A model generated the notes under the pieces. That model was not told the origin of the DNA. It did no database searches and saw nothing but the letters and a program-made list of their open reading frames with translations. The position numbers and the translations under genes were made by a program. From NCBI GenBank assembly GCA_000004985.1, contig GG738850.1: DNA of 64,000 bases. One strand, given 5' to 3'. This document shows, in pieces, positions 21,344 to 51,200 of this stretch. How positions within the stretch are numbered: position 1 is the first letter of the stretch; each line of letters opens with the position of its first letter. Source of the DNA: Naegleria gruberi. Taxonomy: Eukaryota.

Positions 21344-21655
21344 TAATATATTTAACACTCTTACTGTGCCTATTACATACCTTATTATAGCAAGAATACC
21401 AAATTTACCTCATTACAGCTCGTTATCATTAAGGAAGAGATGAAAAACTGAACATGTCTGCTATTTTTATGTAGCAATGATATCAAAAATTAAAAGGGCA
21501 CAAATCAATAAAATATATTTTCTTATCATTTTTTAAAAACAAACGCTAAACACAACAGCACTGCTATTTTTCAGCGACGTCTTGGACTTTTGGAGAGGAT
21601 CCATCATCATAAAAGCAGCAACAACAACAATAACAACAGTATATAATAATTGAAG

Positions 21656-24166
21656 ATGCAGGCATTGTTGAAAAGGAAGAAAGTTGCCAAGTTTAATTTT
21701 AAAATAACAATTCTCCACTTGATGAAATTACCAAAGAGTGGAGTTATATTGTATATAACATGGAAGAGAGGAAAGAAACATAAAGGAGAAACAAAAAAAG
21801 CCTTTGCCAAAGATAAAACAGCATCATGGGAAGAAGAAATTGAATTTAAAGGAACATTGTTTAAAAATTCTAAAGGAAAATATAAGAAGAAGTTTTTGGA
21901 ATTACATCTTCACCAAGTAGGAGATAAAAAGAAGAAGAGTGAGATTGGACACTTATCTATTAATTTAGCAGATTATTCATCTTTGCAAATGGAAAGTCGA
22001 TCCGAAACTAGAACATTTACTGTACCTATGTGGGGAGGATCATCAAATGGTGAATTGAAAATCAAGATTGAAAGTAATCCAAGATTGAAATCCGATCCAA
22101 ATGATTTAACAACATTTACTGATAATACCACCATGACTGATGCTACTGAAGATAGTGAAGAAGATAATCAAGGAGGTTTTAGATCGAAAGGATTTAGAGA
22201 ATATGGTGAGGATGATGATGATCATTTCGGAGAGCATGATGATGAAGAAATTGTAGAAAATGAAGACTTTGATATGGAAGATGATGATAATAGATTTAAT
22301 CGTGAAGATGATGATGTAAGAAGTGGTGGAAGTAATGACCAAGCTAGTGATAGGGAGGATTTCAATAATTCACCTCCTAGAGGTTCTTCTTCAAGAGTGA
22401 CCAGGAGCAGAGATGATTTGAGTGATGGTTTGGATGACGACATGGATGAAGACTTTAATAGTGGAGATGAAGAATTGGATGAAGAACCAGTTGCCAAGAA
22501 ACCAGAACCAAAACCACTTTCAGGTGTTAGTGCCTTTGAAAGAAGAGGTGTTATTGGATCAAGAAATAAGGACAGAAGACGTCAAAATATGAGTTTAACG
22601 AATGAACTTGATTCTGATGCCTTCTTGAAGAATTTGGAAAAAACCAATGAATCAATTCAACAAAGACAGAAGAGAAAAGTCATTGAAGAACCTGTTAAAA
22701 CAAATACTAATAATAATAATGCTTCTGATGATGAAAACAGTATGACTGGAGACGACCAATCAAGTAGCCACAATGAAGAATTGGAAAAAGCCAAGAAGGA
22801 ATTGGAGAAACTTGAAATTAATAGACGAGTAACTGAAGAAAAATTAGCAAAGGCTCAAAAAGAAAACAACGAGAAGAACCTTGTTTTTTATCTAATTACA
22901 GACAAATTACCTGAATATTCACGTGAAATTCCAGTTTCTGCTCCATTGATTTATAAGGCTCTCAAACATTGGGATTCTTTCAAGCCAGAAAATAATTCAT
23001 TAATTTCCAAGATTATTACTGCCCTGACTTCTGTCATTAGAAGTAATGACACTAAATTTGATACATTATGCTATTGGTTATCTGTCATGTTAAGTTTACT
23101 CACCCTTTTACAAAAAGACTTCCCAATTACTCATTCCCACGAACAAGGTGTTCAAGTTGACTTACTCAAGGATTTAGATTTGTCTTCAATCAATGTTGGT
23201 AGTAGAGGTATCCTAGATGATGTTTTGCCATCAAAGGAAACAACTGTTGGATATATTGAAATGTTAGAAGCAGTTGTTAAAACAGTATTAGAATTGGATA
23301 AGGAAAAGGGTATAAGAACAACTAGCATTTCACTTGTTGCTTCAGATAATGGTAATGATGATGACAACTCATTTGCTTTTGAGGGTCCTGTTTCTCAATT
23401 CAAAAAGGATTTATTGGAGTTAATTCATAAGATTTTTGTGATTCTGTACCAAGATGTGATTCGTAAATTACTTCCACTTCTTTTTGAAGGTTTATTTGGT
23501 AAGAATGGGCAACCATCTTCAAATGCTGATGCAAACAAAATTGGAAAAGTACTTGATGAAACATTCAAGCTATTCAAGAATAACTTTATACCAAAGACAT
23601 TCAGAGAACAATTTTTCGGACAAGTATTCTACTTTATTAATTGCTTTGCTTTCAATGCAGTGTATTCACATAAGAGAAATTACTGCAATATGAGTTCTGG
23701 TATTATGTTAAAGATGAGCGTCTCTATATTGGAACTATGGGCTGAAGAAAGAAACTTTGAGTTTTGTACTTCCAAACAATTCACACAAGGAGTTGTTATT
23801 ACAGGAATAGGGATGCTTTTCTTGAGACAAACAGCTGACGTGATGATTACTGCCAAGTCTTCACTTGTTGATAAATCCTCAAGACAATTGGTTTGTCCAT
23901 TGCTTTCTGATACTCAATTGAAAAGAGCTTTGGAAAATTACAAGAAGGACGATTTTGATAATGTTGTTCCTTCATCAGTGCTGAATAATATTCACTCTGA
24001 TAAGAGTAAGCCAAAATATTTATTGAATGGATCCCTTATCTTTAAACCAAACCTCGAGTACCTTTCACAAAATTCCTCATCTCTTAATATTATGAACGAT
24101 GCTATCTTCCAAAACAATATACCTGCACAATTACAGGACGAGGAATTCGATTTCCTCACCAAATAA
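21656..24166 (+). CDS. NT-C2 (N-terminal C2) domain + acidic linker + C-terminal Dilute (DIL, myosin-V cargo-binding-like) domain protein
   Basis: Real ATG at 21656 (the track start at 21650 is TTG). N-terminal KFNFKITILHLMKLPKSG...ITWKRG resembles the EHBP1/EEIG1-type NT-C2 domain. C-terminal region LIYKALKHWDSFKPENNSLISKIITALTSVIRSN...FDTLCYWLSVMLSLLTLLQKDFP resembles a DIL domain. Confidence 0.6.
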   Translation: MQALLKRKKVAKFNFKITILHLMKLPKSGVILYITWKRGKKHKGETKKAFAKDKTASWEEEIEFKGTLFKNSKGKYKKKFLELHLHQVGDKKKKSEIGHLSINLADYSSLQMESRSETRTFTVPMWGGSSNGELKIKIESNPRLKSDPNDLTTFTDNTTMTDATEDSEEDNQGGFRSKGFREYGEDDDDHFGEHDDEEIVENEDFDMEDDDNRFNREDDDVRSGGSNDQASDREDFNNSPPRGSSSRVTRSRDDLSDGLDDDMDEDFNSGDEELDEEPVAKKPEPKPLSGVSAFERRGVIGSRNKDRRRQNMSLTNELDSDAFLKNLEKTNESIQQRQKRKVIEEPVKTNTNNNNASDDENSMTGDDQSSSHNEELEKAKKELEKLEINRRVTEEKLAKAQKENNEKNLVFYLITDKLPEYSREIPVSAPLIYKALKHWDSFKPENNSLISKIITALTSVIRSNDTKFDTLCYWLSVMLSLLTLLQKDFPITHSHEQGVQVDLLKDLDLSSINVGSRGILDDVLPSKETTVGYIEMLEAVVKTVLELDKEKGIRTTSISLVASDNGNDDDNSFAFEGPVSQFKKDLLELIHKIFVILYQDVIRKLLPLLFEGLFGKNGQPSSNADANKIGKVLDETFKLFKNNFIPKTFREQFFGQVFYFINCFAFNAVYSHKRNYCNMSSGIMLKMSVSILELWAEERNFEFCTSKQFTQGVVITGIGMLFLRQTADVMITAKSSLVDKSSRQLVCPLLSDTQLKRALENYKKDDFDNVVPSSVLNNIHSDKSKPKYLLNGSLIFKPNLEYLSQNSSSLNIMNDAIFQNNIPAQLQDEEFDFLTK

Positions 24167-27040: not shown

Positions 27041-28729
27041 ATGGGAACCCCAGATTGGGGTAATGATTTAACACTCAACTATGACACTTGCAATATTATG
27101 TCACTCACACAAAAACAATCAAAAAAAATGAGTAAACGAAATAGACAAGATTTGGAAAATCAATTAATTAATTATTCGGAGGAAAATAATATGGACGAGA
27201 AAGCAAAAAAGGTTTCAATGCAACGACAAGAAATATTTTCAGATGATGTTTGTTTTGAAATAATTTGCATGCTCGATGATTCGTGGTTTATTTTGAATAA
27301 TTGTTCATTGATTTCAAAACAATTCTTTAATGTGATCAAGGAACGTTCAAAACTTGTTATTCAATTTAATCAAAAATTTACAGAAACAAGAATTGAATTA
27401 TTCATGAAAAGTCAATTTATGAATAGTATTGTTCATCTTAAATTTTATAGAAGCTCGCTTGACTCTATAGAACAAGTCAAATTAATAAGTGAAATGAAAC
27501 AATTAAAATTACTTGATATTCGTGGAATTCAAATAGGAGATGAAGGAGCCAAATTTATAAGTGAAATGAAACAATTGAGATCACTTAGTATTTATAACAA
27601 TCAAATTGGTGTAGCAGGAGTCAAATCAATAAGTGAAATGAAACAATTAACATCACTTGCAATTTGTAACAATCGAATTGGTGATGAAGGAGTCAAATTT
27701 ATAAGTGAAATGAAACAATTAACGTCACTTACTATATGTTACAATCAAATTGGTGTTGAAGGAGTAAAATCCATAATTGAAATGAACCAATTAAAATCAC
27801 TTAATATATCTTACAATGAAATTGGAGATGAAGGCGCGAAATCAATATGTGAAATGAAACAATTAACATCACTTAATATATGTGACAATCGAATTGGTGT
27901 AGAAGGAATCAAATCAATATGTGAAATGAAACAATTAACATTACTTAATATATCTAAGAATCAAATTGGTGATGAAGGAGTCAAATTCATAATTGAAATG
28001 AAGCAATTAACGTCACTTGACATATGTTACAATCGAATTGGTGATGAAGGAGCCAAATCCATAAGTGAAATGAAACAATTGAAATCACTTGATATTTATA
28101 ATAATCAAATTAGTGATGAAGGAGTCAAATTTATAAGTGAAATGAAACAATTAACATCACTTGATATTAGTGCAAATGAAATTGGTGTAGAAGGAACCAA
28201 ATCAATATGTGAAATGAAACAATTAACATTACTTAATATATCTAAGAATCAAATTGGTGATGAAGGAGTCAAATTCATAATTGAAATGAAGCAATTAACG
28301 TCACTTGACATATGTTACAATCGAATTGGTGATGAAGGAGCCAAATCCATAAGTGAAATGAAACAATTGAAATCACTTGATATTTATAATAATCAAATTA
28401 GTGATGAAGGAGTCAAATTTATAAGTGAAATGAAACAATTAACATCACTTGATATTAGTGCAAATGAAATTGGCGTTGAAGGAGTCAAATCAATAAGTGA
28501 AATGAAACAATTAACATCACTTAATATTAATAACAATGAAATTGGTGATGAAGGAGCCAAATTTATAAGTGAAATGAAACAATTAACATCACTTAATATA
28601 TGTTACAATCGAATTGGTGTTGAAGGAGTCAAATTAATAGGTGAAATGAAACAATTGAAATCACTTAATATTAATTACCAAAAGACGAAATCTAAGGATT
28701 TGGTATGGATTACAAATGAGACTGCTTAA
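27041..28729 (+). CDS. F-box / RNI-like leucine-rich-repeat protein (about 18 tandem 24-aa LRRs)
   Basis: F-box region IFSDDVCFEIICMLDDSWFILNNCSLISKQFFNVI, followed by 72-nt (24-aa) repeats of consensus SEMKQLTSLDIxxNxIGDEGxKxI. The first ATG, at 27041, may not be the true start. Confidence 0.7.
   Translation: MGTPDWGNDLTLNYDTCNIMSLTQKQSKKMSKRNRQDLENQLINYSEENNMDEKAKKVSMQRQEIFSDDVCFEIICMLDDSWFILNNCSLISKQFFNVIKERSKLVIQFNQKFTETRIELFMKSQFMNSIVHLKFYRSSLDSIEQVKLISEMKQLKLLDIRGIQIGDEGAKFISEMKQLRSLSIYNNQIGVAGVKSISEMKQLTSLAICNNRIGDEGVKFISEMKQLTSLTICYNQIGVEGVKSIIEMNQLKSLNISYNEIGDEGAKSICEMKQLTSLNICDNRIGVEGIKSICEMKQLTLLNISKNQIGDEGVKFIIEMKQLTSLDICYNRIGDEGAKSISEMKQLKSLDIYNNQISDEGVKFISEMKQLTSLDISANEIGVEGTKSICEMKQLTLLNISKNQIGDEGVKFIIEMKQLTSLDICYNRIGDEGAKSISEMKQLKSLDIYNNQISDEGVKFISEMKQLTSLDISANEIGVEGVKSISEMKQLTSLNINNNEIGDEGAKFISEMKQLTSLNICYNRIGVEGVKLIGEMKQLKSLNINYQKTKSKDLVWITNETA
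27890..28470 (+). repeat. Near-perfect 288-bp tandem duplication (4 LRR units, 96 codons) inside the F-box/LRR gene
   Basis: The sequence at about 27913-28200 is repeated identically at 28201-28488 (offset exactly 288 bp). Identity decays only at the flanks. Confidence 0.85.
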
Positions 28730-28914: not shown

Positions 28915-30231
28915 ATGTCTGATGATCAACAAGAGGACCTTTCACCTTCCCGTCCGACTGAAAAAGAAGTAAAACCACCACCCCTTCGAAAATATGGCAA
29001 TTTGAATGATGTGAGAGAGGCTCATTCGTTCTATGCTGTAGGAAATATGGCAACAATCTTTGTTTTTATGGCACAGAATAATGCAGATAGTTTTGAATTG
29101 ATTGCGTTGGAGGGAGAACAATTTCCTGACGAGGTACGTGATAAGCGTGTGTCGTTGATCTTATCTGGTGGGAGAGCAAGTGGAGTTTATTCAATATTTA
29201 TGATTAGAGGATTGGAAAAGAAAGGTTTCTTGTTGGGAAAGGGAGTTGTGAAATATTTTACATACGAAAGGTTGATGAATGATGTGGATAGTTCAAAATC
29301 GAGGAGATTTAATCGATGTTTGGCTTGTTGTGAGGGATATGTAATTTTAGAGATGGAGGATGAGGAATTGTATATATTTGAAATTGTGGATGAAGTTTTA
29401 AAACCATTTAAATTGGAAAAAAAAGTGAAACTAATTGCTCACAATATGATGTCTAGCACTGTTGCTGTGTATTTTACAGATCATACTTTGAGGATTGTAG
29501 ATTTGACAAATGACAACAAGTTGGGAAATGAAATTGAGTTAATTAATAATTCTCCAATCAAAGTCTTGGCGAAATATGCAGCAGATTTATTTATTTTCGT
29601 TCATCAGGATGATTCCATGTATATTTATAGAAATGATGAGGAAAGTGATGGGTTTGTTAGTATTCCAGACAATGTCACTACTCAAATCAAAACTGAGTTT
29701 TCATCTCCAATCAAACAATTGGTTGCTGGTTATTCACATTTTGTTGTTCTACTTGAAGATGGAAAATGTTATACCAGGTAGGTTATTTTGTAAATGATAT
29801 AGTTGAATTGAATGCTAATTCTCTTTTAATAACCAAGAGGGATGAACAATTATGGTCAAATAGATGGTAAAATGGGTGGTGAGGGCTCTACAGTGACTCA
29901 TTTTCATCCAATTCTTCACAATATTGGAACAGTGCTCTCTGTGAATTGTTCTTCATTATCCACAACTTTGGAAACAGAAAGTGAAATAGTTCTTGTCGGA
30001 GAAGTTTCTCAAACATTCCAAAAGTTAAGTTATCCTTATTGTCAGGGAATGAATAGCTTTTGGGTTCATAGAAAAGAATTCTCAGATGAAACAACTAGCT
30101 TTGGACCTTGGCATGGATTTATTTATAGAGCTAGTTTCCATAATTTACCTTGTAAGACATTACAATATTTCAAAAATAATTTGAGAATGTTGGTAAAGGT
30201 TCCTAAACTTTCTGATATTTCCATTCAATAA
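28915..30231 (+). CDS. RCC1-repeat (regulator of chromosome condensation-like) protein; 2 exons (28915-29780, 29838-30231)
   Basis: A 57-nt intron (GTAGGT ... GCTAAT ... AAG) joins ...DGKCYT|R|GMNNYGQIDGKMGG, which is an RCC1 blade signature. ATG at 28915. Confidence 0.65.
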
Positions 30232-30380: not shown

Positions 30381-32681
30381 TCATTCTTCATTGAGGTAAT
30401 TCCAATTGTGAGGATCTGAATTTGGACATTGTGAATTCAGGACAATCTTATCAAACTTTAAGGTGATCAATTGCTGATTAGAGTTAATGACATGCATGAT
30501 ATTTGGTTTAGTACAGAAAGATCCAAGTACCCATCCAACTGTTTGATTGGCCTTTTTGAAGGATAGTTCGTTGTGATCGAAAAGAAGAACGTGGCCCTTT
30601 CCTTCATCTCCAAATCCAAGAATGGCCACAGTTGAGTCATTGATTTCACAAGCTGATTGAGGTGTTGGATGAATTCTAAAGTTCTTTGCCTCAAATGCCA
30701 AAGTAGGAATTGATTTGTCTGGATAGATTATTTTCCATGTCTTTTTCTTTAAATCAAAACAATGAACTTTTGAAAATGATTTCGTAGAGTCACTACCACC
30801 AATTATCAAAAGTGAATTCTTTTCTGGCAAATGAATGGCTGAATGCTGAGAGAGGGGATCAGGTAAATCGTTATGATCCTCTTGTTTAATTTTCTCCCAT
30901 GAAAAAGATGATAAATTCAATAGATACATGTCGTTGAAATATTCGTAAGGACCTCCCTTACAGACTTGTCCACCAAATATCAATATACTATTCAACTTTG
31001 CTATGTAAGTTGCAGAGTGGAAGGCACGTGCAGATGGAACTTCTCCTTTGGTTTTCACATTAATGAGAGAGGCAGCATTGATATCATAGCAAATGACATC
31101 ATTGTACTGATATTGAGAATCAAAACCACCAAATATGAAAACCATATCATTGACACATGTGGCAGAGTGTCCCCACTTGGTTTCTGTGACAAATTTCCCA
31201 CTCGTATTCTTCAACTTTGGCACAGAAACATTTCCAGTATTTACATCAATGAATTGAATCATTTGTCCTGCGGTAGCTCTTGGTCCTCCAATTACAATAA
31301 TTGTATCTTTCCATTGACAAGTGCTTGAGAATATTCTATCACCAATGGCTGCATTATTTACAGAGCTAACAGAAGAAACGAGCTTTTGATTTCTTTGCTT
31401 GGTAGTTGGCAATCTCATAACTCCTCGTACTTTAGGTTGTCTAATATAGAATTCATCATCGCTTGGACATACATTTGTGGTATGATATCTGGACTTACAT
31501 GAACCACATTCCTTAATGGAGTAATAGTTTCTTGTTTGGCCACAAACCAAGTAATAATATTTGAAGAATTCAGGAGGTACTGGATAGAGTGTTTGTTTGG
31601 AACCATAAAATCCACCACCAGTTTCCAAAGTCCTTGGTAGATCGTCCAAAGATTTGATTTCTCCAACTGGTTCAGTACAATACAATGAAGATGGTCTACC
31701 AAATAAACCAACAGTGTATGAATCAGAATCATCAGAATCATCTCCAATCCACCAATAATTTAGAGAAATAGAATTTCCATCTGAGAGTACCATGTGTGGC
31801 CATCCTTTTGGGATGAACATAACATCACCAGGATTCAGTGTGACACGAACAGGATTTGATTTGAAAAAGTTAGGGAAATTCAGTGCGATTTCAGAAGGTT
31901 CCTTAGTGAGATCGATACGTGTTTGTCTATCACTGGTTGGATGATCTTCCTCATTGAGATAGAGTAAGGATTTTTCCTTTGGCTCCCATAAAATCATGTG
32001 TTTCTTTCCAAATATTTGAACGAATAAATTATCTGAATTATCATAGTGAATTGGTGTCAATGATTGATCAGAAGAAATCCACATATTTCTATAAAATTGT
32101 GAACTGCCAATCAATTGACTTTGTAAATTTTCCACATTTCCCAATTTTGATTTGGTTTGTTGTAATTGCCAAAATGCATCTCCCAACACCCGAGTGTCCA
32201 TTTGATAAATGTAGTGTTTCTCATTGGGAGAGAGGAGAAACATTGGTTCCTTTTGTAGCTGTCCTCTCGTTCCAAAGACAAACGAGAGAGCTTGTTCCAA
32301 ACTCATTGAAACAACCTTCCTTTGTGGCGATTGGACATTCTTATATCCATGTCCACCAGGAAACACACCATCAGTGGCAACATATAAATCAACTGTCTGT
32401 CCACCCACTTGTGATCCATAATCCTTCACCAAATCCATAAAATCCTTCATAAAACCATCAACATTAACCAATCCATCAGTCGACTGCTGATCAATCACAT
32501 GTGGTACAGCATGTAAGACCAATCTTTGCAAATTGATATTCTCTCCCCTTTTCTGTTCGGAATTGAAGGGATGAACAGAGAGTGGTTTGGCAGAACATTC
32601 GAGACCTTGCCCGGTGAATTGTTCTAAAAGCCATTTGGAGAGTGAGCTACTACCAGTAACACCTTGATTGGTTTGAACCAT
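30381..32681 (-). CDS. JmjC-domain (Fe(II)/2-oxoglutarate oxygenase) protein with C-terminal Kelch beta-propeller; TYW4/TYW5-like architecture
   Basis: 766-aa single ORF. The JmjC core, TPIHYDNSDNLFVQIFGKKHMILWEP ... NPGDVMFIPKGWPHMV, carries the HxD...H iron ligands. The C-terminal roughly 330 aa has Kelch-like blades (IFGG, VIGGP, LIIGG repeats). The N-terminal roughly 200 aa is unassigned. Confidence 0.65.
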   Translation of the reverse strand: MVQTNQGVTGSSSLSKWLLEQFTGQGLECSAKPLSVHPFNSEQKRGENINLQRLVLHAVPHVIDQQSTDGLVNVDGFMKDFMDLVKDYGSQVGGQTVDLYVATDGVFPGGHGYKNVQSPQRKVVSMSLEQALSFVFGTRGQLQKEPMFLLSPNEKHYIYQMDTRVLGDAFWQLQQTKSKLGNVENLQSQLIGSSQFYRNMWISSDQSLTPIHYDNSDNLFVQIFGKKHMILWEPKEKSLLYLNEEDHPTSDRQTRIDLTKEPSEIALNFPNFFKSNPVRVTLNPGDVMFIPKGWPHMVLSDGNSISLNYWWIGDDSDDSDSYTVGLFGRPSSLYCTEPVGEIKSLDDLPRTLETGGGFYGSKQTLYPVPPEFFKYYYLVCGQTRNYYSIKECGSCKSRYHTTNVCPSDDEFYIRQPKVRGVMRLPTTKQRNQKLVSSVSSVNNAAIGDRIFSSTCQWKDTIIVIGGPRATAGQMIQFIDVNTGNVSVPKLKNTSGKFVTETKWGHSATCVNDMVFIFGGFDSQYQYNDVICYDINAASLINVKTKGEVPSARAFHSATYIAKLNSILIFGGQVCKGGPYEYFNDMYLLNLSSFSWEKIKQEDHNDLPDPLSQHSAIHLPEKNSLLIIGGSDSTKSFSKVHCFDLKKKTWKIIYPDKSIPTLAFEAKNFRIHPTPQSACEINDSTVAILGFGDEGKGHVLLFDHNELSFKKANQTVGWVLGSFCTKPNIMHVINSNQQLITLKFDKIVLNSQCPNSDPHNWNYLNEE

Positions 32682-32839: not shown

Positions 32840-33547
32840 TTACAAATTCTTTTGAATGGCTTCTCTCATAACCTTGATGGTTTGTTGAGGTTGAGGAGAT
32901 TTGAAAATTGCAGAACCAGAAACAACAACGTTAGCTCCTGCTTCAGCTGCTGGAACAATGGTTGTTTCAGTAACACCACCATCAACTTGAATATTCAAAT
33001 GTGGATACTTTTCACGTAAAATCTTGACTTTTTCCATTTGATCAGCCATAAAAGATTGTCCACCAAATCCAGGTTCAACACTCATAATTAAAATCATATA
33101 AATGGATTCAGTATGATTATCCAAAATAGGGAATAAAACATCAACTGGAGTCTTTGGTTTGATAGTAATTGAAGTTTTGCATTGTTTTCCTTGTTTTTCA
33201 TTTTCTTCTTTAATTAAATTCATAACTTTTAATGTAGATTCCAAATCACCATTTTCCGATTCGTAATGGAAAGTAATATTATCAGCTCCTGCTTCAATAA
33301 AATCATGAATCCATTTACTTGGATGAGAAACCATCAAGTGGCAATCCAAAAATCCCTTGGTATGTTTTCTCAATGATTTAACTACTGGTGCTCCGATAGT
33401 AATATTATTAACAAAATGACCATCCATCACATCAACGTGTAACCAATCGGCTCCGAAATCTAACATTTGATTGGAATCGGCAGCGAGAGTGGCAAAGTCA
33501 GCACTAAGAATTGATGGACAAATAATGGCTTGGAGTTGTTGAGACAT
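32840..33547 (-). CDS. RPE: Ribulose-phosphate 3-epimerase
   Basis: Colinear with RPE: PSILSADFA, LHVDVMDGHFVNNIT, MVSHP, VEPGFGGQSF, VDGG, and SGSAIF. Confidence 0.92.
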   Translation of the reverse strand: MSQQLQAIICPSILSADFATLAADSNQMLDFGADWLHVDVMDGHFVNNITIGAPVVKSLRKHTKGFLDCHLMVSHPSKWIHDFIEAGADNITFHYESENGDLESTLKVMNLIKEENEKQGKQCKTSITIKPKTPVDVLFPILDNHTESIYMILIMSVEPGFGGQSFMADQMEKVKILREKYPHLNIQVDGGVTETTIVPAAEAGANVVVSGSAIFKSPQPQQTIKVMREAIQKNL

Positions 33548-33681
33548 TTTTTTAGAATTAATTTATTAATTTATTAGAATATTGTGTTTAATTTGTTTAA
33601 TTTTAGAAGGCGAATTAGTAAACATTTTAGTAAATATTGTCGGTACGGGAAATAATTGTACAGTGTGATTTATTAATGAAA

Positions 33682-36359
33682 TTACAGTTTGTCGGATTGC
33701 AATGTGAAACGAGGGAAGTTAATTCTAGGATAAGGTGTTTGAGAGAGTTTGACTTTGGAGGCCTTCTTATTGGCAAGGAGTAGTGAGGCAACTTCCTTTT
33801 TCCAGTTGTCTGCTTCTTTTTGTAATCCTTCAAATTCTTCTAAAGCTATTGAGACATAGATAATTAAATCTTTTGGAATGTCGAGGGATGGATTGTCGCG
33901 TACGAGATCATTAAATGATTTGGAATCTGCCTGAACTGATTTAAGTGTTTGAATAAATGTTTCAACCTTGCTCTTCAAAACTCTAAAATAATTTTGTTTA
34001 AGGATATATTGAATTAAATTCTCAATACTTACAAATCAATTGATTCTTCAACTCTTTGGAATTCACTATCAACGGCCTCTTCAGCTTGTGCTTCCTTCTT
34101 CTTCTTTTTCAATATTGAGGATGATCTAATCTTTGATACAGAGCTGTAGGAAACAATAGACTCAATACTTGGACGAGTTCCAGATATTGAAGTTCTTCTT
34201 GGTTCCATATCCAAACTACGACGTATGCCTGTATCTTCAACTGAAACTATTGTTCTCTTCTTTTCATAGGCTGGTGGCGTAAGTGAGTTACTGTTAGATC
34301 TGTCTCTTCCAACTATTGGAGAACTTGGTTTATCCTTCTTAGGTTTGTCTTGAGGAATGGCAGAGAGTGGTGCAAATTCTGAAAATACTGACGAAGAGTA
34401 TCTTTGCAATTTGAAAAGAATAATTCTTTGGAAGATGCTTCTAATGTCTGCACTCCAATGAAGGAACAAGTGATAGAATCTATCTCTCAACAAGTCATGC
34501 CCAATAAATTTCATTCTTGCCCTTCCGTTGAACAAGTCCAGAATATTATACACGAAAATTAAAGTTCTCGAAACAATTTGGAAATGGTCTGTTTCAAGAA
34601 GTCTCGAAATTGCTGTTTCAAAGAACTCGAAATTGAAGCTATATCACAAATTAATTCTTGATTAAATTTTCTAGTATACTTACTTCTCAGGTAGTGAACC
34701 AATAAATAGTTCAATATTAGAGTCATTAGATTCCAAGTAGAAATAGGTATGTTGATGTTTTTGATTTCTGTACAGTAAATATTGTTGGAATTGGTGTTCC
34801 AAGTGTCTCACTTCTTCGAACCACTTGTCCGTCCAATCTAGAGTGTAGAAAACTTGATCGGGGTTATATCCGTTAGTGTTTGAGAAGAAAATTTCCATCA
34901 AAATGTTAATCACTCTAGGGTTACGAAGAGCAATCAGGGAGCATGACAACCATTGCTTAAATGCGATGGATTCGTGGCCATCCTCACCTCTTGCTGATTC
35001 TTCTAATCTTTGAATTTTTTGTTCTTGTTTGTTAGTTGTATCAGTTGATGAAACAATAGCATCGCTAAAGTTAATATTGATATGTTGTTTCAAATAAATT
35101 TCACCCAATTGAGTAAAATGAGTTACAAGAGTAGTATATCCGGGCACTAGTTGCCAATGTTTGTTTGATGTATCATGTTTCATAATCTTACTGATTTGAT
35201 CCACAAATTCTGAGAAGAAATAATTGAAAAAGTCGGCTGAAACCTTTGATGTTGGTACCCACACAGATGCATTCTTCATCCATTCACTCATCTTGATTAG
35301 AATAGACTTGGTATTTGGATCATTGAGTGGATCAATTTCAAAGAAGAATTTAAAGTAGCACAGAGCTGTCTTGAGTACGAATAATTTTTCCTCATCCTCA
35401 GCTGGCTCTTCTTTTGTCTTTTCTTCTTCATCTGAGTCATATTGTCCTAGAAGGGTCGAGAGACTGGTCATTGAAGGGACATACTTTAAGTTTTTAAAAG
35501 ACTTTTTCTTAATGTCCAAGTTAGTGTTCACAATATCAACAGTTTCAGGTTCCACAAAATCGGAATCAAATTGTTTCAAACAAAGGCTAGCAACAAACAT
35601 CTCAATTTGATCGACCGATAATAATCGGAAACAGTTTACGGCCAGAACAGAAGCACAAAATCTCATCAATTCAACAACGATATTTTCATGCTTCTTCGTC
35701 TTTAGTACTTGGTTGATGACGAAATCTTGAGTTCTCACCAGTAATTCCTTGTATTCCAATAGGACCTTCTTTGATAGTTCATCATTACCGTCGGATTTCT
35801 TCATAGATCCTAGTAAAGAGCTTAGGAAACCTTTCTTTTGTGGTTGGTTGTTAGGATTAAATGTTGGACTAATTTTCAAGAATGATAGATCTGTTTCTGT
35901 AGATGATGAGAGATCGGCACCAGTGTGTGATGGAGAGACCTCCTTTGTTATTTGATTCAAAATTAGGTTTTGGAAATACTTTGGGTGAAATTCTCTTCTC
36001 TTGATCAACAATAAAATTAACTTGTAGCAAGGTAATCTATAATTAATGCTGATCATATCTATTCTAATAATCAAATACTTCCACACATCCAGGAATAGCT
36101 GTGATGCTTGGAGTCTCTTCTTTGTAATGTTGTGTGTTTCTTCCAATCCAATAACTCCCACATTGTTATCAATTGTTAAACCTCCGAAATCAAATCTTGG
36201 ATCTTCTTGAAACATTTCCAAGAGTTGAGATAATACATTCTCTTGGATCGTTTGTGATGACAGTAATTGTTTACACAATTTCTCTTGCTTTCCTGTCCAC
36301 TTTACCAGAAAATCCCTTCTGCTGGTAAATTGTTGTGTAGGGTCTTCTATAGCGCTCAT
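33682..36359 (-). CDS. Large conserved hypothetical protein (about 860 aa), 3 exons (36359-34684, 34638-34033, 33982-33682)
   Basis: Real ATG at 36359 (MSAIEDPT...). Introns 34683-34639 (GTAAGT, 45 nt) and 34032-33983 (GTAAGT, 50 nt) link three ORFs in phase. Helical-repeat-like composition; no domain recognised. Confidence 0.45.
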
Positions 36360-36845
36360 CAAATTTAAAATTGACTAATATAAATATTAAAATATGATGA
36401 TGATTAGTCAAGATTGCCAAAGCTGCCTGATGATAGCAAATCTGATGATATGAAAAGAAAGGCTTTTTTTTATTTTTGGAATTTTGAAAATATAGGCCTT
36501 ATTTGTGAGTATGAAATGACTTCAACCTTCTCCGACCAGCCGTGATGCAACGGCTCTTTGGCATAATTATGGAAGACATTGATCCAATTTTAAATAGTGG
36601 TGTTTCATCAATCTTCCAAAGATTTTTGTATTGTCGCTAAAACCTTGTTGGCTGATATATATTGGTAGGAAATCATTCTTGTTATCAATTTACAAAGACA
36701 ACAATATCTCTGTTTGTGTAGAACGTTTGTTGGTATGAATTATATTGAATGTTTAGAAACCAATTAATTTCCCTTATCTCGGAACATTAACGAGGTCTGG
36801 GGTTGAAATTTTCTTCTTGAAATGCTTGAGTGATTAATTTGGTGC

Positions 36846-37874
36846 TTACAGTTGTTGATTGGTATTATTCATTCGTTGTAAATATTCGTTCAATCTGAGC
36901 TGAATGACAAACTTATTGAGATGATAGACAAAATATTCGTCAGAGTTTTCCATTTTGATTTCGTGAAGATCTTTGAGTTGAATCCAAGGTTTGGACTTTT
37001 CTATTGAGCTGAGCTTGTTCATGATCAGTTGATGGTATTCACTTCGTTTCTCTTCAGAGGGAAGATGATTTCTCACCTTCATTAATTGATCTCTTTCCTC
37101 AGAGCCATTTTCAAACCAGATACGTGGGGGTTTTCCTTGAATTAATCTCTCAGTTTCGTAACACAATCTTAGTGAGTGGTAGTAATTCTTTTGGTAACCT
37201 CGTTTGATTTTACCCTCTCCTTGTTGTAATTGTCTTTTAGCAAATGCACAATGAGATGAAATAACCTTCTTATTTAAGAATTGAATGTTTAACTTTTTCA
37301 AAGGTTCCCATTCTCTTGATTGATATTTATATGGGAAGAAATCTGGAACGAATAATGTTTGAAATACGAAAGGATTTCCATGTAGACACAATTCCAAATA
37401 TTTTCCAATTTCTAATTAATTATTAGATTAATCCAAATAATATAAATATTAATATTATTATTTTGTTGTAATTAATAGTAATAAATTAATAATAATTATT
37501 ATAATAAATAATGATCTGATCAAAGTACACAACCTACCAAAACATGAAATATCATTTCCATCCTTTGTTACGGTACAAATTCCCTTATCAGCCAAATTCA
37601 ACACCTTTGCCTTGGCACTTCCAATGCTACTAATATCAACATATGATAATTTTGGTTCATCAATAGAAAAAGAAGGCATTGATAGGAATTGCTCACACGG
37701 TAACATGTAAATCATGACAAAATCAAAATCACTCTTATTTTCATTCTTTAAATTGTAGAGTGTTGATCCGACAGCTGTGATGAACAGTAATTTAGCCTTT
37801 GGTGAAACATTTTCCTTCAGGAAATCCTCACCCATCAATTTGATAGAATTTTCATCGAATTGTTTGTTGTTCAT
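36846..37874 (-). CDS. Minimal nucleotidyltransferase-fold (Pol-beta superfamily) protein, 2 exons (37874-37538, 37411-36846)
   Basis: N-terminal LLFITAVGSTLYNL...SDFDFVMIYMLP matches the GS...[DE]h[DE]h nucleotidyltransferase signature. A 126-nt AT-rich intron, 37537-37412, has a GTAGGT donor and AG acceptor; phase verified (...DISCF|E|IGKYLELCLHG...). Confidence 0.45.
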
Positions 37875-37879
37875 TTTTT

Positions 37880-39480
37880 TTAATCAAATACCTAAACAGA
37901 AAAACCTTAGAGTACTTGGCCATTACCCTTGGGATGATACTTTGGTAACACAAGACATCCAATCCAAGATAGACAAATTCACAAAATCATTAAGATTTTT
38001 ACCATTATTCAAATTACAGCCAACAAACCTTAAAATAATTATGCATGCTAAAGCAATCAGCCTATTCACTCACCTCTCAAAAATCAATATAATCCCTTTA
38101 AAGAAAGCTCAGGAAATAGATCGTGCAATTAGAGGTGCAATCAGACGTAAATTATTAATGGACAGAGCAACTCCAACAAGTTTCTTTCACCTGCCATTAG
38201 AAGAAGGTGGATTAGGATTACCATCAATTGAGGAATTCTCTGAAAGAATGAATTTAAGAACTATGAATTTAATCGCCAATAATAAGAATAAGTTAATAAG
38301 AAAAGCTTTCAAACATGGTATCAAACATTGTGAGGAAACTAAAGATAATATTTATGCTAAATGGTTATCTGTACTTAAAGAATATAATCTCACATTTGTG
38401 CAGAATGATACGAAATTTAGAATAGCCAAAATTAAAACAGGGAATAGTTTCGATATCCATACAGATGGATCTAGAATTAATCAAAAGACAGGAATGGGTA
38501 TTAATATTTATGATACCTCAAATAGATCAGTTCCTTGTAAAACTTTATCCCTCAGAATCAATAATCATTATTCAAATAATATAGCCGAAATATGCTCTAT
38601 AATAACTTCTATTAATGTAATCCCACGAAACTCTAAAGTTACCATTCATACTGATAGTGAAGTTGCAATAGAAGTTCTCAAAGATAGATACAAAGGAGAT
38701 TTTCTAACATTAAAAGAAGCCTTCTTTAGAACAACCAAAAATAGAAAAATAGAATATGAAATTAAGAAAGTTGAAGCACACAAAGATAGCGAGAATATCA
38801 AGGTTGATTTAATAGCAAAGAATGCTACAACCAGAGATGATATTTTTGATATTCGTAATTTACTCAAGAATCAACACCTCCTTGTTAAGGATGGTGTTGT
38901 CATCTTCAATCATAAGAAGATGACCATAACAAGACATTTAAGTGTAAGACATAATAAGATGAATGAAAACCCTAACTTTATTCTAAACCAAAGTTGGTAT
39001 TCTCTTAATGTGCAATACCTTAAAACTCGTCTTACTCCTAAAACTAAATACTTTATATGGAGAAATTCCATCAATGCCCATATCAATTTTGGTAAGGGTA
39101 AAAGTTTCTGTTACGATTGTGGTACAGAATCTGATTTATTCCATTACATTCATGAGTGCCCTGGCTTGGATAGTGCCAGGTATTTTTGTCAGTCAAAGAT
39201 ATCTGATATTCTTGAAGGGAGAGAGTGCTTACTTTCTCATTTTCAATTCAAACCAGAAAAGCATCACCATGCATTACATTTCCATCATAACGGAATCACC
39301 TCTTTCGAAGATGGATACATGCAATTCCATAAAGACATCGCTAAGAAGTGGCCAGAGATCCAAGGTGCCATTTCTAACTTTGTCGGCCGTTCCTATTCTA
39401 ACTATTATATTGACTCCAAATAATTTATATAACCTATGAGAATCTGAATAGATTCGTTATTGTCGTAATAAAAGATTTTT
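37880..39480 (+). mobile_element. 5'-truncated non-LTR (LINE) retrotransposon remnant: ORF2 tail with RT thumb, RNase H and zf-RVT (CCHC-like) domains
   Basis: RT C-terminal/thumb region (KNLRVLGHYPWDD...LPLEEGGLGLP). RNase H motifs (HTDGS ... AEICS ... IHTDSE ... KVEAHKDSENIKVDLIAKNA). zf-RVT-like motif (PKTKYFIWRNSIN...CYDCGTESDLFHYIHEC). No catalytic RT motifs or endonuclease upstream, so the copy is truncated. The ORF-track coordinates 37777-37879 are read-through into the neighbouring gene, not element sequence. Confidence 0.65.
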
Positions 39481-39583: not shown

Positions 39584-39654
39584 GCGTCGATGGTTTAGTG
39601 GTAGAATACGGCGTTGCCATCGCCGTGACCCGGGTTCAATTCCCGGTCGACGCA
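39584..39654 (+). tRNA. tRNA-Gly (anticodon GCC)
   Basis: 71-nt cloverleaf: acceptor GCGTCGA/TCGACGC, D-arm TGGTTTAGTGGTAGAATA, anticodon stem CGGCG/CGCCG with loop TTGCCAT, T-arm CCGGGTTCAATTCCCGG. Confidence 0.9.
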
Positions 39655-45235: not shown

Positions 45236-48200
45236 ATGATCAATACAAATTTAAAAGGCAACAGCACCTCTTCGTTTGCTGAATCACCTACTGTTGCAAC
45301 AACGAGCAGTAATATGTATAATTCATCGAGAGAAATGGCTGGATTTCCTCTTCAAAAATTAGTTTTAGGAGAAGTAAATTCTCTCATTCTAGCCATGAGA
45401 AATATTCATTCAATGAGATATTCTAATAGATATAGATTTGTATGTATTGTTATTAGTTACAGCTTTGAATAATATTTTAAAAGCAATATGAAAACTTACC
45501 AAGACAAGGAGGAAATGAAAGTCCTGTCCTTGTGGGAATGAGAGCTTTACGAGAAAAAATCTGTAGTAACATTGGATGGCAATCCATGACTAGTTTGGAT
45601 ATTCTTCAACCTTTCTTTTCAATTATTAAATCGGAAGATACTGAAGGAAGAATAACATCAATGGCCTTACGATCCATTCAAAAATTATTGGAATCACCAA
45701 GTTTTATTTGTAGGTTTTATTGTTTTATAGTATTATTCTTAAGGTAAAAAAGCTCCTTTATCTAATTTAGAAGAAGCCAAGACGGCCATTCAAGAAATTG
45801 TTTCTGCTGTTCAACAATGTCAATTCGAGTTTAACTCTACTGATTCTACTTCATTGTCAGAATCGGGAGGACCTATTATTTTGGATCATTCTCTTGGAAG
45901 TGGACTTGGTTCTATAGCATCAGTTGTATCGGAGACTACACTTTTGGAATCTGTACTCATTCAAATAATTAATACATTCATGTGTTGCATTAAATGTGAA
46001 GCTGGATTTTTAATACCAGAAGAGATGATTCTTGAAATCTTAAAGAGTGTTTTGAGAATTGGAAGAGAAACAAGACCATGCACTGATTCCTTGAGAAAAA
46101 TAGCAGAAATGACAATGCAAGAAATTGTTAAAATTGTCTTTACAAGATATAAGAATATGGCTACCTCATCATCTCAGGCAGTCTATGGAGGAGAAAAGAT
46201 TTTTGAATTTATTTGCGACATGTGTGATATTTCTTCTAATACTTCAACTGAATCACCATCAACAGCAGCCATCAAATTAACTTCTCCTTCAACAGGACCT
46301 AATTCTGCTGGAGTAAATAGTATTGGTACTAGATATTTGGGAATTAGTCTTGCTTGTCATGCGATTGAGCTTATTGGAGATACCATTTCCAAAGATAAGA
46401 ATAACAAGATACTGAACATGATTTGTGATCAACTTTTTAGAGCCCTTTTGAGAAACACCAACATTTCCTATCAGACAATACTCTTTATGGCCAATGGTGA
46501 AATGATGTTCAGTCCAACTGTCCAATCTGGTATGGGGTCCTCCTCACCAATCACTTCTGCAGTTTTAATTGCTGCAAATGGTGGTAATTTACAACCAACC
46601 CATGCAAACTATGGCAATAACTTGATGCTCCTTTCTGCTGTTCTCAAATGTACCATATCCTACTTGGCAAGCTTACCTAATCTGAGATATTATTTGCATG
46701 AACAAATTGCTTCTATTCTCCTCACATTATTACAACATTTACCATCACCACAACAACAATACGGATCAAACAAGAAGAATTTTTCCAATTCTCCAATTTT
46801 AGGAAGTAATAGTAATATTTTCCTTCCATTCGAATTACAAGAATTAATTTTGGAATATTTGGTAGAAGTTTGTAGAGATTCAAACTTTATTACCTTCTTG
46901 TATAGAAACTATGATTGTTATGGATGCTTTGTAAAAAATAAGGATAACTTTATCGTCAATGTAAATACTATACCGAACCTTTTCGAACACATTTACCTCT
47001 ATTTGAATAGTTATATTGGACTAAACTCAAATTCAAACTCATCAAACAATAGCCAAAATAACTTCCATAATAGTGCTTCTATGGGAAATACATCAAGCCA
47101 ATTCAATAACTTTTCCAATCCTTCCTCATCTGGCTCTGGTAATTTGCATACTTTGCACGTGTTGGCATGGGTTGGCCTTTTGAGTGTTGTAAGGTGTCTT
47201 GCCGAACGATGCCAAGAACAACAAGAAAGTAGACAAACTTTGGACATGCAAATTGTTCACACTAAAATGTCAGAATTGAAAACTTTCAAAAAACAAAAGC
47301 ACAAGTATATGGAAATTGTTGCCCTTTTCAATAGTAGTCCACAAGAAGCCATAACACAATTATTGCAATTACACAATATTAGCATTCCAAAAGATTTGAC
47401 TCAATTCATCAAGAGTGACAGCTCAAACGAACAAGAAAGCACAACTGTCGACTGGAATGAGGCTATAGTTTTATTGCAAAGAGCTGCTGAAAAAATTTCT
47501 AAATTCCTTCTCGACTATAATATGTGGCTAGATAAGCAAAAAATTGTTGATTACTTTAATAGCTTCTCTTCTCCACCTAGTACAGTAGTGGATATTAAAG
47601 TAAATATGGGATCCATAGTAATACCAGAAGATCAACTCAATCACAACACTTATCTGATTCCAATTTTGAGTAAGACAAGAAAAGACCATCTCAGAAATGC
47701 CCTTCCTTTGGAAGTAATGAGACAATTTATGGATGGGTTTGATTTTTATGGAATGAGAATGGAAGAATGTATGAGATATTTCATTAATAGATGTAAGATT
47801 TCAGGAGAAGGACAACAAGTAGAAAGAATCATTAAACTCCTCGGTGAAAGTTACTACAGAGACAACAATACCCACTTTGCTTTGGAGAGAAATGATTCAA
47901 GCAAAAATCGTACCATACCAGCCATTCCTTACATTGACAATGGAGAACAAGCTTGGATTTTAGCTGTAGCTTTAATGCTCTTACACACAGATCTTCACCA
48001 TCAAAACAATAGAAACAGAATGAATTTGGCCGATTTTATGAAAACCATTGGATATCACGATGAGTTAAAGGGTATTCCTCAAGAAGAACTTCACAAAGTC
48101 TATCACTACTTATTGGCTAATGAATTTGAAGTCATGACAGGAATGACCGATGCCTACAAGACTGAAGCAATTTGGAAAGAAGTTATTGTTGACAAATCCT

Positions 48201-51200
48201 TTGCATATTATGATGAACATTTGAGTAACAAATCAGAAACCTCTGAAAATATCATTTCCTATGTTTATGATATGGACATGTTCCAAAGTATGTTTGGTCA
48301 TGTAATTCTTGCAACTACGACCATATTGGAACATACTGACGATATACAATTACTTGAATTGGCAATTAGAGGATTTTTGGATAGTGCTCGTGTTGCTGCA
48401 AGCTATCACTTGCATCATGTTTTTGATAACTTGGTCATTACTCTCTGCAAATTTACCACACTTATGGACGGTGTAACTCCACCTTCCATCTCTGCTGTTA
48501 GCTGTCCGAATACAAGTGAAAATACCACTTCACCACCAACATGGCCTCTCAATGCCAGTACTGCAACCTCAATTATGACTCATGATGGTGTTGTTATTTC
48601 AACAGTTAACAGTTCTGATCCTAACAGTTCAGCTTCTTCACCTTCTACAGCTCAAAGCTCTATTTCATCTAACAATAAGGGTGATGTTTCTCGTAACGAT
48701 AAGAATAGATCAATTCTCATGTTTGGCCACAATGAAAAGGCTAAATTAGCTTGTCGTACCGTGTTTGCCATCACTAGAAAATATGGTGATAATCTCAGAG
48801 AAGGTTGGAAGAATATTTTAGATCTTATCTGTAGAATGAGAGAATTGGAACTTTTACCAGAATCTATTGTTGAATCAAGACTTGTTCGTCAATTAAGAGA
48901 ATTCCAATTCCCATCTTCTAGTGCTGATTCTGCTAAACTTTCCTCTCCAAGAAAGGATAGTAATGATTCAACCATTTCCAGTGTTGCAACCAATCAACTT
49001 TTAACATCTGGTTCTTCCCTTTATAATCAAGTTATATCCAGTCTTTCAAAGAGTAGTACCAAGAAATCCAAGCCAAAATCTCAAAATGGAAGCAATGCTC
49101 CAATGAAGAGTGCAACATTCTCACTTCTCTCAACCATGTTTGGCGGCTTTTATGGCAGTGCTGACGACTCGAATAATGAAAAGAAGAAGAACTTGGACGA
49201 GGAATCTGATGATGAGGAAGAATATGAACAAGGACATGTCTCACAAAACTCTGAGGATGCCCACTTCTCTATTGAAATTAAACATGCTCTCGATGAATCA
49301 AGAAAGTGCATTGAACAATGTCGTATTGTAGAGTTATTAATGATGGATGCCAAGGAATTGAGTGGCAATTCATTGGAATACTTGTTGAGTGCCCTCATCA
49401 GAAATGGTAAGCCAGCAGGTATTTTAATGACCATGCACATTCCTGCTCCTCACTTGTTCACATTGAAAACAACCAAACAACAACAAAATGCAACTACCTC
49501 AACCTATTACTATTATGAAAGAGACTTAGATACTTCCCTCTTCTGTTTGGATTTATTGTGTGATGTTTTGATTAATAATAATTTGAATAGAAATACTGGT
49601 TGCGAAAGATTGAAACTTATTTGGAATTATGTTTACAGCCACGTTTACAAATTAATGATTTCCATTTTGCAATTATACCAACCAATCAGCACCATTCAAT
49701 CCATTTACCAAGTTAATAATGGACCTAATAGTGCTCCACCATCTGTAGGTTCATCCAATCCTTTCGGTACTAGTTCTGGTAGCGATAGAAACAGCCCACT
49801 CCCAGTAACAAATAATCAACCACTCAGAACAAGAATGACCAAGCAACATTACCACGTCTTGCAAAGATGTTTGACTTGTATTTGGAGATTGTGTATGGAT
49901 CTTTCTACACCATCTACCCAATTCAATAGTGTTGAAAATCAAGCAGAATGGGAGATTGTTCAAAAAGAAATGCTCTCTGTCCTTATTGATAACCTTGGTA
50001 AGCAATGGAGTGAAACTATGTTGGGTGTTTTCCATAATAGTTTACTTCCTATGATTCACATGTTCTTGTCGAGACAAGGTGAAACTCTACTCTCACCAAT
50101 GGCTACCAAATTCATTCAAGATCGTACAAATGCTACCAATCTTAATCCTTCCACAATATTTACTGATAGCTCATCAAGACTCATTGTAGATTTGTGGGAT
50201 CATTTAGTTTTCAAGATTTTGAGAAGTATTTCCAACGTTTCCTCCTCATGGATAAATAATAATCCTAATAGCTCACTCTTCACATCCATCAAACCTTCAC
50301 AACAATTACAATTAATTACCAGATCATTAGATGTACTTACTCTCAGTTTACAATACTCTACATTACAGGATGATACTACTCATTTCGGGTTATGGTTTGT
50401 TGTTCCTGATAATATCCCAACATTTGTCCAAAGTATCTTGTCCGTTTTGAGTTCTTCCATTACAACAAATGTAAATATTCAAAACACCTCCAATGGAAGC
50501 AATAGCTCCCAACAATTTGTATCCACCCTTAAAAAGCTTATGGCTCTCACAATGGACATTTTAATCATTTTGGAAAATTTGGTTATGGAAATTTTGAAGA
50601 GAATTGTATCCATTGCCTATTCATCTGCTAACTCATCCCAAAACGTCATCAAATTGGATAACAAGTGGATCAATGCTTGGCTTTCAATTCTTGAAGGTAT
50701 AGCAGTATTGTGTTGCACTGGTGGCATTAACACTAGTGGACCGGTCAATGTTCTGAACTTACTAATGTCACAATTGAATAATAGTCAAATTCAAATGTTG
50801 AGCCACCTCCAAAGAGATATTAGAACCCAAGCACTTTCAACCTTACAAAGATCTCTTGTTTATAGTTGTGATTTCAGATATTCATTCACTGCCAACCAAG
50901 AAGACTCACAAAATCTAAAATATCTCCTCAATGATCAACTCTTAATGATGTGTATGGATCGTGTATTGCTCAAGACATTTTTCCAAACTCTTCTCACACT
51001 CAAACCAAAGACAACTGAATATCAAACCAATCACAATACAGAAATGGATATTTCCTCTTTAGAAGAGCTTAGGGTCAGAGCCAACAACTTACTTGCTAGA
51101 ATATTCCTGCACTTTTTACCAAGAATGTTCCCTGTGAATAATACTGAAAGTCAACAAGATAATGGTTTCTCTTCATTGTGGCTCACCATTCTTCAAGTTA

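Follow-up and report, generated by a model that had tools for sequence, protein, structure and literature searches.

FIH (HIF1AN), an asparaginyl beta-hydroxylase, belongs with TYW5, JMJD5, and JMJD7 to a clade of JmjC-only oxygenases that depend on Fe(II) and 2-oxoglutarate (2OG); JMJD5 (KDM8) is an arginyl C3-hydroxylase, JMJD7 is a lysyl hydroxylase, and TYW5 acts in the wybutosine (yW) modification of tRNA-Phe. Iyer et al. 2010 (PMC2938197) gave the 'HP motif' as a signature of the FIH1 family, listed a Naegleria Kelch fusion under that family, and tied a 'bacterial yW hydroxylase/FIH1' group to peptide secondary metabolism. Here we describe a gene at positions 30381-32681 (minus strand) of the window, the 64,000-nt stretch of the Naegleria gruberi contig GG738850.1 (GenBank assembly GCA_000004985.1) that was analysed; its 766-aa product joins a JmjC/Cupin_8 domain to a Kelch beta-propeller. 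We infer that this product is the fusion listed by Iyer et al., because no other of the 150 best matches combined JmjC with Kelch. Our analysis favours, with a probability of roughly 0.6, a lineage-restricted, FIH-like Fe(II)/2OG side-chain hydroxylase that would use the Kelch domain for substrate recruitment.

Two published descriptions of FIH bear on this classification. Hampton-Smith et al. 2019 (PMC6488082) recognised FIH by H199, D201, R238, Q239, and H279, at least two of Y145, T196, and K214, and an alignment score to human FIH of >200 bits. The same study reported that the C-terminal dimerisation helices are critical for FIH catalysis.

Architecture of the JmjC-Kelch protein

The gene is an intact and intron-less open reading frame (ORF) that runs from ATG to stop on the minus strand (30381..32681), with the stop codon at 30381-30383. 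Its product is identical over the full length (100% identity) to an NCBI entry named 'predicted protein [Naegleria gruberi]' (P0001). Pfam scores far beyond chance confirmed that a JmjC core and a C-terminal Kelch domain lie in one 766-aa protein, as the earlier note on this DNA had proposed; as an architecture, the fusion is not new, since a Kelch fusion in Naegleria was already listed by Iyer et al. (2010).

Residues 1-50 (32532..32681, minus strand) form a lead-in without a Pfam match. Bacterial homologues align onward from about residue 12, and their N-terminus aligns to SSLSKW (residues 12-17), so that the N-terminus of the Naegleria protein is probably complete. The catalytic domain, a JmjC/Cupin_8 double-stranded beta-helix of the FIH-like type, was delimited by Pfam, alignment, and AlphaFold2 to residues 51-312 (31746..32531, minus strand). 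The Pfam match to Cupin_8 extended over residues 51-311 (E value, 3.2e-30; 106 bits against a cut-off of 27.4), and an alignment-based AlphaFold2 model of residues 1-450 reached a predicted local distance difference test score (pLDDT) of 80-96 over approximately residues 50-312. The N-terminal part of about 200 aa that had previously been left unassigned thus forms the first half of the Cupin_8/JmjC fold.

A linker of 138 aa (residues 313-450; 31332..31745, minus strand) follows, for which we found no Pfam match and no homologue. It opens with an acidic run, GDDSDDSDS, directly after W311 and contains a Cys/His cluster (C380-x12-C393-x2-C396-x4-H401-x4-C406) that could be a small zinc knuckle. 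The pLDDT was <50 for most of residues 316-450, where only short, low-confidence helices were predicted and the alignment used for the model had no coverage. The linker stands where FIH, TYW5, and the bacterial relatives carry C-terminal helices, to which it does not align.

The Kelch beta-propeller occupies residues 451-766 (30384..31331, minus strand), as indicated by Pfam, matches in the PDB, and the register of its blades. The strongest Pfam match was to Kelch_KLHDC2_KLHL20_DRC7 (PF24681) at residues 454-660 (E value, 3.5e-36; 125 bits against a cut-off of 50), and Kelch_4 (85.5 bits), Kelch_3 (75.6 bits), Kelch_6 (68.4 bits), Kelch_1 (51.1 bits), and Kelch_2 also exceeded their cut-offs. 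Four clear blades of the GG type, with GG at residues 465, 518, 570, and 628, are followed by two degenerate C-terminal blades. In the PDB, the propeller matched the Kelch domains of LZTR1 (81 bits), the dynein heavy chain (74 bits), and KLHDC3 (59 bits). Kelch propellers in eukaryotes are mostly modules for protein-protein interaction.

Active site and relatives of the JmjC domain

Alignment with MAFFT showed that the catalytic residues of FIH are retained. The Fe(II) ligand pair HxD lies in H212-Y213-D214 (32040..32048, minus strand; H199 and D201 in FIH) and was invariant in the alignment, and the third Fe(II) ligand is H296 (31794..31796, minus strand; FIH H279). The binder of the 2OG C5-carboxylate is K227 (32001..32003, minus strand; FIH K214), and the further 2OG partner residues Y157, T209, N218, N308, and W310 are also kept relative to FIH. 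The motif quoted in the earlier note, TPIHYDNSDNLFVQIFGKKHMILWEP, corresponds to residues 209-234 (window positions 31980-32057). The HxD pair of Fe ligands separates 2OG hydroxylases from 2OG halogenases; the intact motif therefore indicates a hydroxylase, not a halogenase.

The residues that position the target Asn in FIH, R238 and Q239, correspond to R252-Q253 (31923..31928, minus strand), whereas TYW5 has K/S and JMJD5 has N/T at these positions. Ahead of D251-R252-Q253 lies H247-P248, which aligned to H234-P235 ahead of D237-R238-Q239 in FIH. Every residue by which Hampton-Smith et al. (2019) recognised FIH thus has its counterpart here (H212, D214, R252, Q253, and H296, together with Y157, T209, and K227), and the alignment score of the Naegleria protein to human FIH was 60-62 bits, short of the 200 bits that these authors set. 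In short, the Naegleria protein has the same Fe triad, 2OG ligands, R/Q pair, and HP motif as FIH; it differs from FIH in having a Kelch propeller and no C-terminal dimerisation helices, and it lies nearer to a bacterial family than to FIH.

Structural comparison agreed with the residue pattern. A Foldseek search of solved structures with the model of residues 1-450 returned FIH at ranks 1-22 without exception (E value, ~1e-18), followed by JMJD5 (3e-17), TYW5 (9e-16), and JMJD7 (6e-15), so that the top matches in both sequence and structure were all JmjC-only hydroxylases. With an HP motif and FIH as its best structural match, the protein belongs to the FIH1 family as Iyer et al. (2010) broadly defined it.

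Sequence comparison set the domain apart from each of the described families. Its scores against PDB sequences were 59.5 bits for FIH, 53.2 for TYW5, and 51.7 for JMJD5 (the human TYW5 and FIH references were confirmed to be identical to PDB 3al5 and 1h2k), and those between the reference families were 91 (FIH-JMJD5), 87 (TYW5-JMJD5), and 57 bits (FIH-TYW5); its distance to FIH, TYW5, or JMJD5 is therefore no smaller than the distances among these families. In a local score table, the Naegleria domain reached 119 bits to the bacterial protein P0004 and lower scores to FIH (62 bits), TYW5 (54 bits), and JMJD5 (48.5 bits); orthologues of FIH scored 180-317 bits against FIH there, and those of JMJD5 130-195 bits against JMJD5. 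Neither JMJD5 (48-52 bits to the Naegleria protein overall) nor JMJD7 has a Kelch domain.

An exhaustive phmmer search with residues 1-450 as the query against 1.84 billion representative proteins yielded 605 proteins below 1e-10; below 1e-30, it yielded only the Naegleria protein itself, and it revealed no orthologue. The best relatives (2e-29 to 1e-19) were stand-alone proteins of 288-332 aa that aligned over residues ~88-312. Nearest of all was a group of bacterial Cupin_8 proteins (P0004-P0018), stand-alone and each 290-330 aa long, which matched the Naegleria domain with 86-120 bits and 29-36% identity over ~220-290 residues. It matches what Iyer et al. (2010) called the 'bacterial yW hydroxylase/FIH1' group. 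Its members are single-domain proteins ending in a helical tail of ~60 aa (RPELR...); in the Naegleria protein, the tail is gone, and the linker and the Kelch propeller stand in its place.

Shared motifs support this affinity. The family motif LYVATDGVFPGG (residues 99-110; 32352..32387, minus strand), which has the equivalent VYVSADGTFPGG in bacterial Cupin_8 proteins, was absent from FIH, TYW5, and JMJD5 in our alignment. Common to the Naegleria protein and the bacterial group only were DG.FPGG, EK.Y.YQ, RN.WIS, DRQ, and SIS.NYWW; for example, EKHYIYQ, RNMWIS, and SISLNYWW in Naegleria face EKYYLYQ, RNxWIS, and SISVNYWW in the bacteria, where DRQ occurs within HDRQS. We also built a neighbour-joining tree of 132 sequences (255 columns; L-INS-i alignment, capped Kimura distances, and 300 bootstraps). 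The Naegleria domain was nested within a bacterial group of 23 sequences, with FIH as the next clade out; FIH itself was the sister of the Naegleria domain in 1 of the 300 bootstraps and TYW5 in at most 2.

Taken together, the residues, the fold, and the relatives place the JmjC domain, more firmly than our overall picture, in an FIH-like branch of the FIH/TYW5/JMJD5/JMJD7 clade, as a predicted member of that branch and not an FIH orthologue. By analogy with FIH, H212, D214, and H296 would bind Fe(II), and 2OG would be held by Y157, T209, and K227, with N218 and N308. O2 would then be activated to an Fe(IV)-oxo intermediate for the hydroxylation of a C-H bond, probably at the beta-carbon of an Asn- or Asp-like side chain held by R252 and Q253. 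The Kelch propeller may take the place of the dimer interface by binding a protein or peptide that bears the substrate or brings it to the enzyme. The substrate class is less certain than the classification of the protein.

Distribution and genomic setting

A word-indexed search of 5.8 billion proteins with the full protein retrieved no orthologue, only the protein itself and two weak Kelch matches; the same kind of search with a 51-sequence JmjC alignment retrieved six proteins. Scans of viral and metagenome contigs revealed no close relative, and a GTDB scan with an alignment of seven closer sequences gave Cupin_8 proteins of Pseudoalteromonas sp. SMS1, P. holothuriae, and a gammaproteobacterial metagenome-assembled genome. 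Among the best 150 JmjC relatives, the long proteins combined the domain with MYND and SAP, ankyrin, glyoxalase, or a tandem Cupin_8, and none with Kelch.

The adjacent ribulose-phosphate 3-epimerase gene (RPE; 32840-33547, minus strand) served as a control and recovered orthologues from N. lovaniensis, N. fowleri, and Willaertia magna with 77-79% identity, which shows that the proteomes of these three species are in the searched database. RPE and an intron-containing DUF1765 gene (~33679-36396, minus strand) form a pair (32840-36396) whose arrangement is conserved in both N. fowleri and N. lovaniensis (L004 and L006). Synteny breaks off at the very 3' end of RPE, which is the position of the JmjC-Kelch gene. 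Downstream of RPE, N. fowleri and N. lovaniensis have an unrelated protein of 512-677 aa with a weak Zn_clus match, and a tblastn search of the 20-kb loci of the two species with the JmjC-Kelch protein found nothing. The JmjC-Kelch gene is thus specific to N. gruberi among the sampled genomes.

On its other side, the JmjC-Kelch gene adjoins two ORFs on the plus strand (28915-29781 and 29842-30231), ~60 nt apart and with a weak match to RCC1_2 (E value, 1.2e-4), that probably make up a single gene interrupted by a short intron. RCCD1, a substrate of JMJD5, is an RCC1-domain protein; the adjacency of an RCC1-like gene to the JmjC-Kelch gene is probably a coincidence. Farther away lie genes for a protein with NT-C2 and DIL domains (21650-24166), a leucine-rich-repeat (LRR) protein (27041-28729), a Sec7/GBF1-like ArfGEF of 1907 aa (45854-51577), and a tRNA-Gly(GCC) detected by ARAGORN (39584-39654, plus strand), as well as an ORF with an RNase H domain that is possibly derived from a retroelement (37777-39423). 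None of the NT-C2+DIL, LRR, RNase H, and ArfGEF neighbours is related to wybutosine synthesis. Since the neighbours are unrelated eukaryotic genes, we rejected the gene neighbourhood as a clue to function.

Competing explanations and significance

The JmjC module of this candidate FIH-like hydroxylase probably either came from bacteria or is part of a sparse eukaryotic lineage that is sister to the bacterial family. Several observations weigh against the picture of a Kelch-recruited hydroxylase with bacterial affinity. The dimerisation helices that FIH requires are absent from the Naegleria protein in both the alignment and the AlphaFold2 model, and a single-sequence AlphaFold2 run on the full-length protein reached a pLDDT of 31. 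The position inside the bacterial family was recovered in 165 of the 300 bootstraps, and a sequence outside all labelled families ('other') was the sister of the Naegleria domain in 129. The G+C content of the window is ~33-36%, and the G+C content at third codon positions (GC3) was 0.23-0.32 for the JmjC-Kelch gene vs 0.19-0.31 for neighbouring genes; neither base composition nor GC3 gave a sign of recent transfer. Finally, two short proteins share the Naegleria-specific motifs TPIHYDNSDN and LYLNxEDxPxDRQTxID, along with a three-residue insertion before FP (EPSEIALNFP, similar to APEEIARKFP). Both are JmjC fragments. One of them, P0067 (ERZ23579034; L012, 1652-2164), lies next to a eukaryote-type amino-acid transporter (Aa_trans) gene. 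The other, P0119 (L010, 665-1273; L011, 680-1288), has an intron-like insertion of 31 aa and was found in two highly fragmented NCBI assemblies, GCA_020064125.1 and GCA_020064105.1, with 57% G+C. The contigs of both stop short of where a Kelch domain could show, and the two may be parts of proteins from relatives that are closer and possibly eukaryotic. Because of the shared motifs, a patchy eukaryotic lineage is as possible as a recent bacterial transfer.

In a bolder version of the history, the protein would be a chimera that formed recently between domains of life: a JmjC hydroxylase from bacterial peptide tailoring would have reached the N. gruberi lineage by horizontal transfer, lost its tail, and been joined to a eukaryotic Kelch propeller, giving a new species-specific module for protein hydroxylation, possibly one that senses oxygen or 2OG, whose FIH-like chemistry would have an origin independent of animal FIH. 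As a whole, this scenario is tentative and appears unlikely to us.

The setting of the bacterial relatives suggests another explanation, namely that the Naegleria protein retained a role in secondary metabolism as a hydroxylase of small molecules or of carrier-bound peptides or amino acids, with the Kelch propeller binding a ligand or a partner enzyme. Seven genomic contexts of the bacterial group, all bacterial, were available, and neighbours were read in all but that of P. holothuriae. Four of the seven adjoin genes of the nonribosomal peptide synthetase (NRPS) or polyketide synthase (PKS) type. In Pseudoalteromonas sp. SMS1 (L008, 77-4845), a tight operon runs from an NRPS A-PCP-TE gene through an FMO/Lys-Orn N-oxygenase gene to Cupin_8. 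Of the other three in this set, one context contains an NRPS condensation/TubC_N gene, an ACPS, and an Asp/Glu racemase; a second contains a ketoacyl synthase, an MFS, and an RHS gene; and a third contains a MacB-type ABC transporter, a thioesterase, and an ACPS. Outside this set, Cupin_8 in a gammaproteobacterial metagenome-assembled genome (L007, 3700-10285) is flanked by FemAB-like and CmcI-like methyltransferase genes. The neighbours of P0004, a reverse transcriptase gene of a group II intron and several unassigned genes, were uninformative. Whereas several of the bacterial relatives thus adjoin NRPS/PKS-type, N-oxygenase, CmcI-type methyltransferase, or other peptide-modifying genes, the Naegleria gene stands among ordinary eukaryotic ones (RPE, LRR, RCC1-like, and DUF1765 genes), with no biosynthetic gene at its flanks. 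In addition, the R-Q pair and the HP motif are those that FIH uses on Asn in proteins, and the general role of eukaryotic Kelch domains in protein-protein interaction does not favour a metabolite substrate. A retained metabolic role is the main rival to our explanation, and we consider it doubtful.

The gene might also be young and species-specific, without a settled function, perhaps decaying or existing only as an annotation, and the fusion an evolutionary accident. The lack of an orthologue in the three related heterolobosean genomes, the position exactly at a synteny break, and the low-complexity linker are in line with this idea. Set against it, a 2.3-kb ORF has stayed intact in a genome of ~35% G+C, where chance stop codons arise easily, all catalytic and cofactor-binding residues are kept, and the four Kelch blades are well preserved, all of which makes an accident of this kind improbable.

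The earlier note had linked the protein to wybutosine synthesis, as a TYW5-like hydroxylase that retained a TYW4-type Kelch domain. The link had some grounds: TYW5 belongs to the same JmjC clade and shares its Fe/2OG chemistry with the Naegleria protein, TYW4 has a Kelch domain, and, according to Iyer et al. (2010), the yW pathway is present in Naegleria, TYW pathway proteins frequently carry Kelch fusions, and TYW5-TYW4 fusions occur in other eukaryotes. However, the same authors listed the Naegleria yW hydroxylase separately and the Kelch fusion under FIH1. For TYW5 they noted a 'conserved arginine in strand N-5 and N-1'. Kato et al. 2011 (PMC3045595) showed that R108 and R149 of TYW5 are strictly conserved and that their mutation abolishes tRNA binding and activity; in our MAFFT alignment with the PDB-verified human TYW5, these residues correspond to Y159 and W201 of the Naegleria protein, the R149 column lying 11 ungapped residues ahead of the HxD histidine. 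Kato et al. equated R108 with 'Asp148' of FIH, and the PDB-verified FIH has Gln at both 147 and 148. Our alignment pairs R108 with FIH Q147, where the Naegleria residue is Tyr, with Gln one position on, and not Arg; the small discrepancy, in numbering or residue, leaves the result unchanged.

Other features of TYW5 and TYW4 were also missing. The C-terminal two-helix domain of TYW5 forms a four-helix-bundle dimer that is required for tRNA binding and activity (PMC3045595), and no such bundle was seen in the Naegleria protein, residues 313-450 of which were unalignable and mostly had a pLDDT of <50. The JmjC domain of the Naegleria protein is acidic, with an isoelectric point of 5.9, whereas TYW5 is basic in character. 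TYW5 evolves slowly and usually has one member per genome. The Naegleria domain scored 53-55 bits to human TYW5, compared with 148 bits for a TYW5-like fragment (P0109) and 57-91 bits between paralogous families, and the bootstraps hardly ever made TYW5 its sister. Among Kelch families in the PDB, that of yeast TYW4 (2zw9) ranked ninth (34 bits; E value, 6.9e-8), and the 766-aa protein had no Pfam match to the LCM methyltransferase domain at an E value of <=1. In the published TYW4-TYW5 fusions, the order is LCMT-Kelch-JmjC, with JmjC on the C-terminal side of the propeller (Iyer et al. 2010); the Naegleria order of JmjC, linker, and Kelch is the reverse. On these alignments and models, we reject a wybutosine enzyme of the TYW4/TYW5 type as a very improbable assignment.

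The earlier note had offered, as its alternative, an uncharacterised hydroxylase or demethylase with Kelch-based recruitment; the hydroxylase half is the best-supported reading, and a histone lysine demethylase directed to chromatin by its Kelch domain is highly improbable, since PF02373 stayed under its cut-off of 24 while Cupin_8 reached 106 bits, structural matches to demethylases were much weaker than those to JmjC-only hydroxylases, no chromatin-reader domain was found in the JmjC-Kelch protein, and the JmjC-only clade seldom or never shows fusions with chromatin domains (Iyer et al. 2010).

What is new here is that the TYW link is explicitly refuted, that the JmjC domain has its affinity with the bacterial family but has lost the C-terminal tail, and that the gene, among the sampled genomes, is confined to N. 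gruberi, where it sits at a synteny break. In practical terms the impact is modest, as the protein is uncharacterised, has been found in one species, and has an architecture that was catalogued in 2010. The uncharacterised bacterial JmjC family, found in apparent biosynthetic operons, may merit a study of its own. The tempting wybutosine label falls away, and what was formerly a 'predicted protein' becomes a putative FIH-like Fe(II)/2OG side-chain hydroxylase with Kelch recruitment, which can be tested. If a bacterial origin is true, the gene would represent a clean capture of a domain, from bacterial secondary metabolism to eukaryotic protein modification. FIH-type enzymes are oxygen- and metabolite-sensitive modifiers of proteins, and a non-animal version with a propeller in place of the dimerisation helices would show how substrate targeting can be rewired in JmjC-only hydroxylases.

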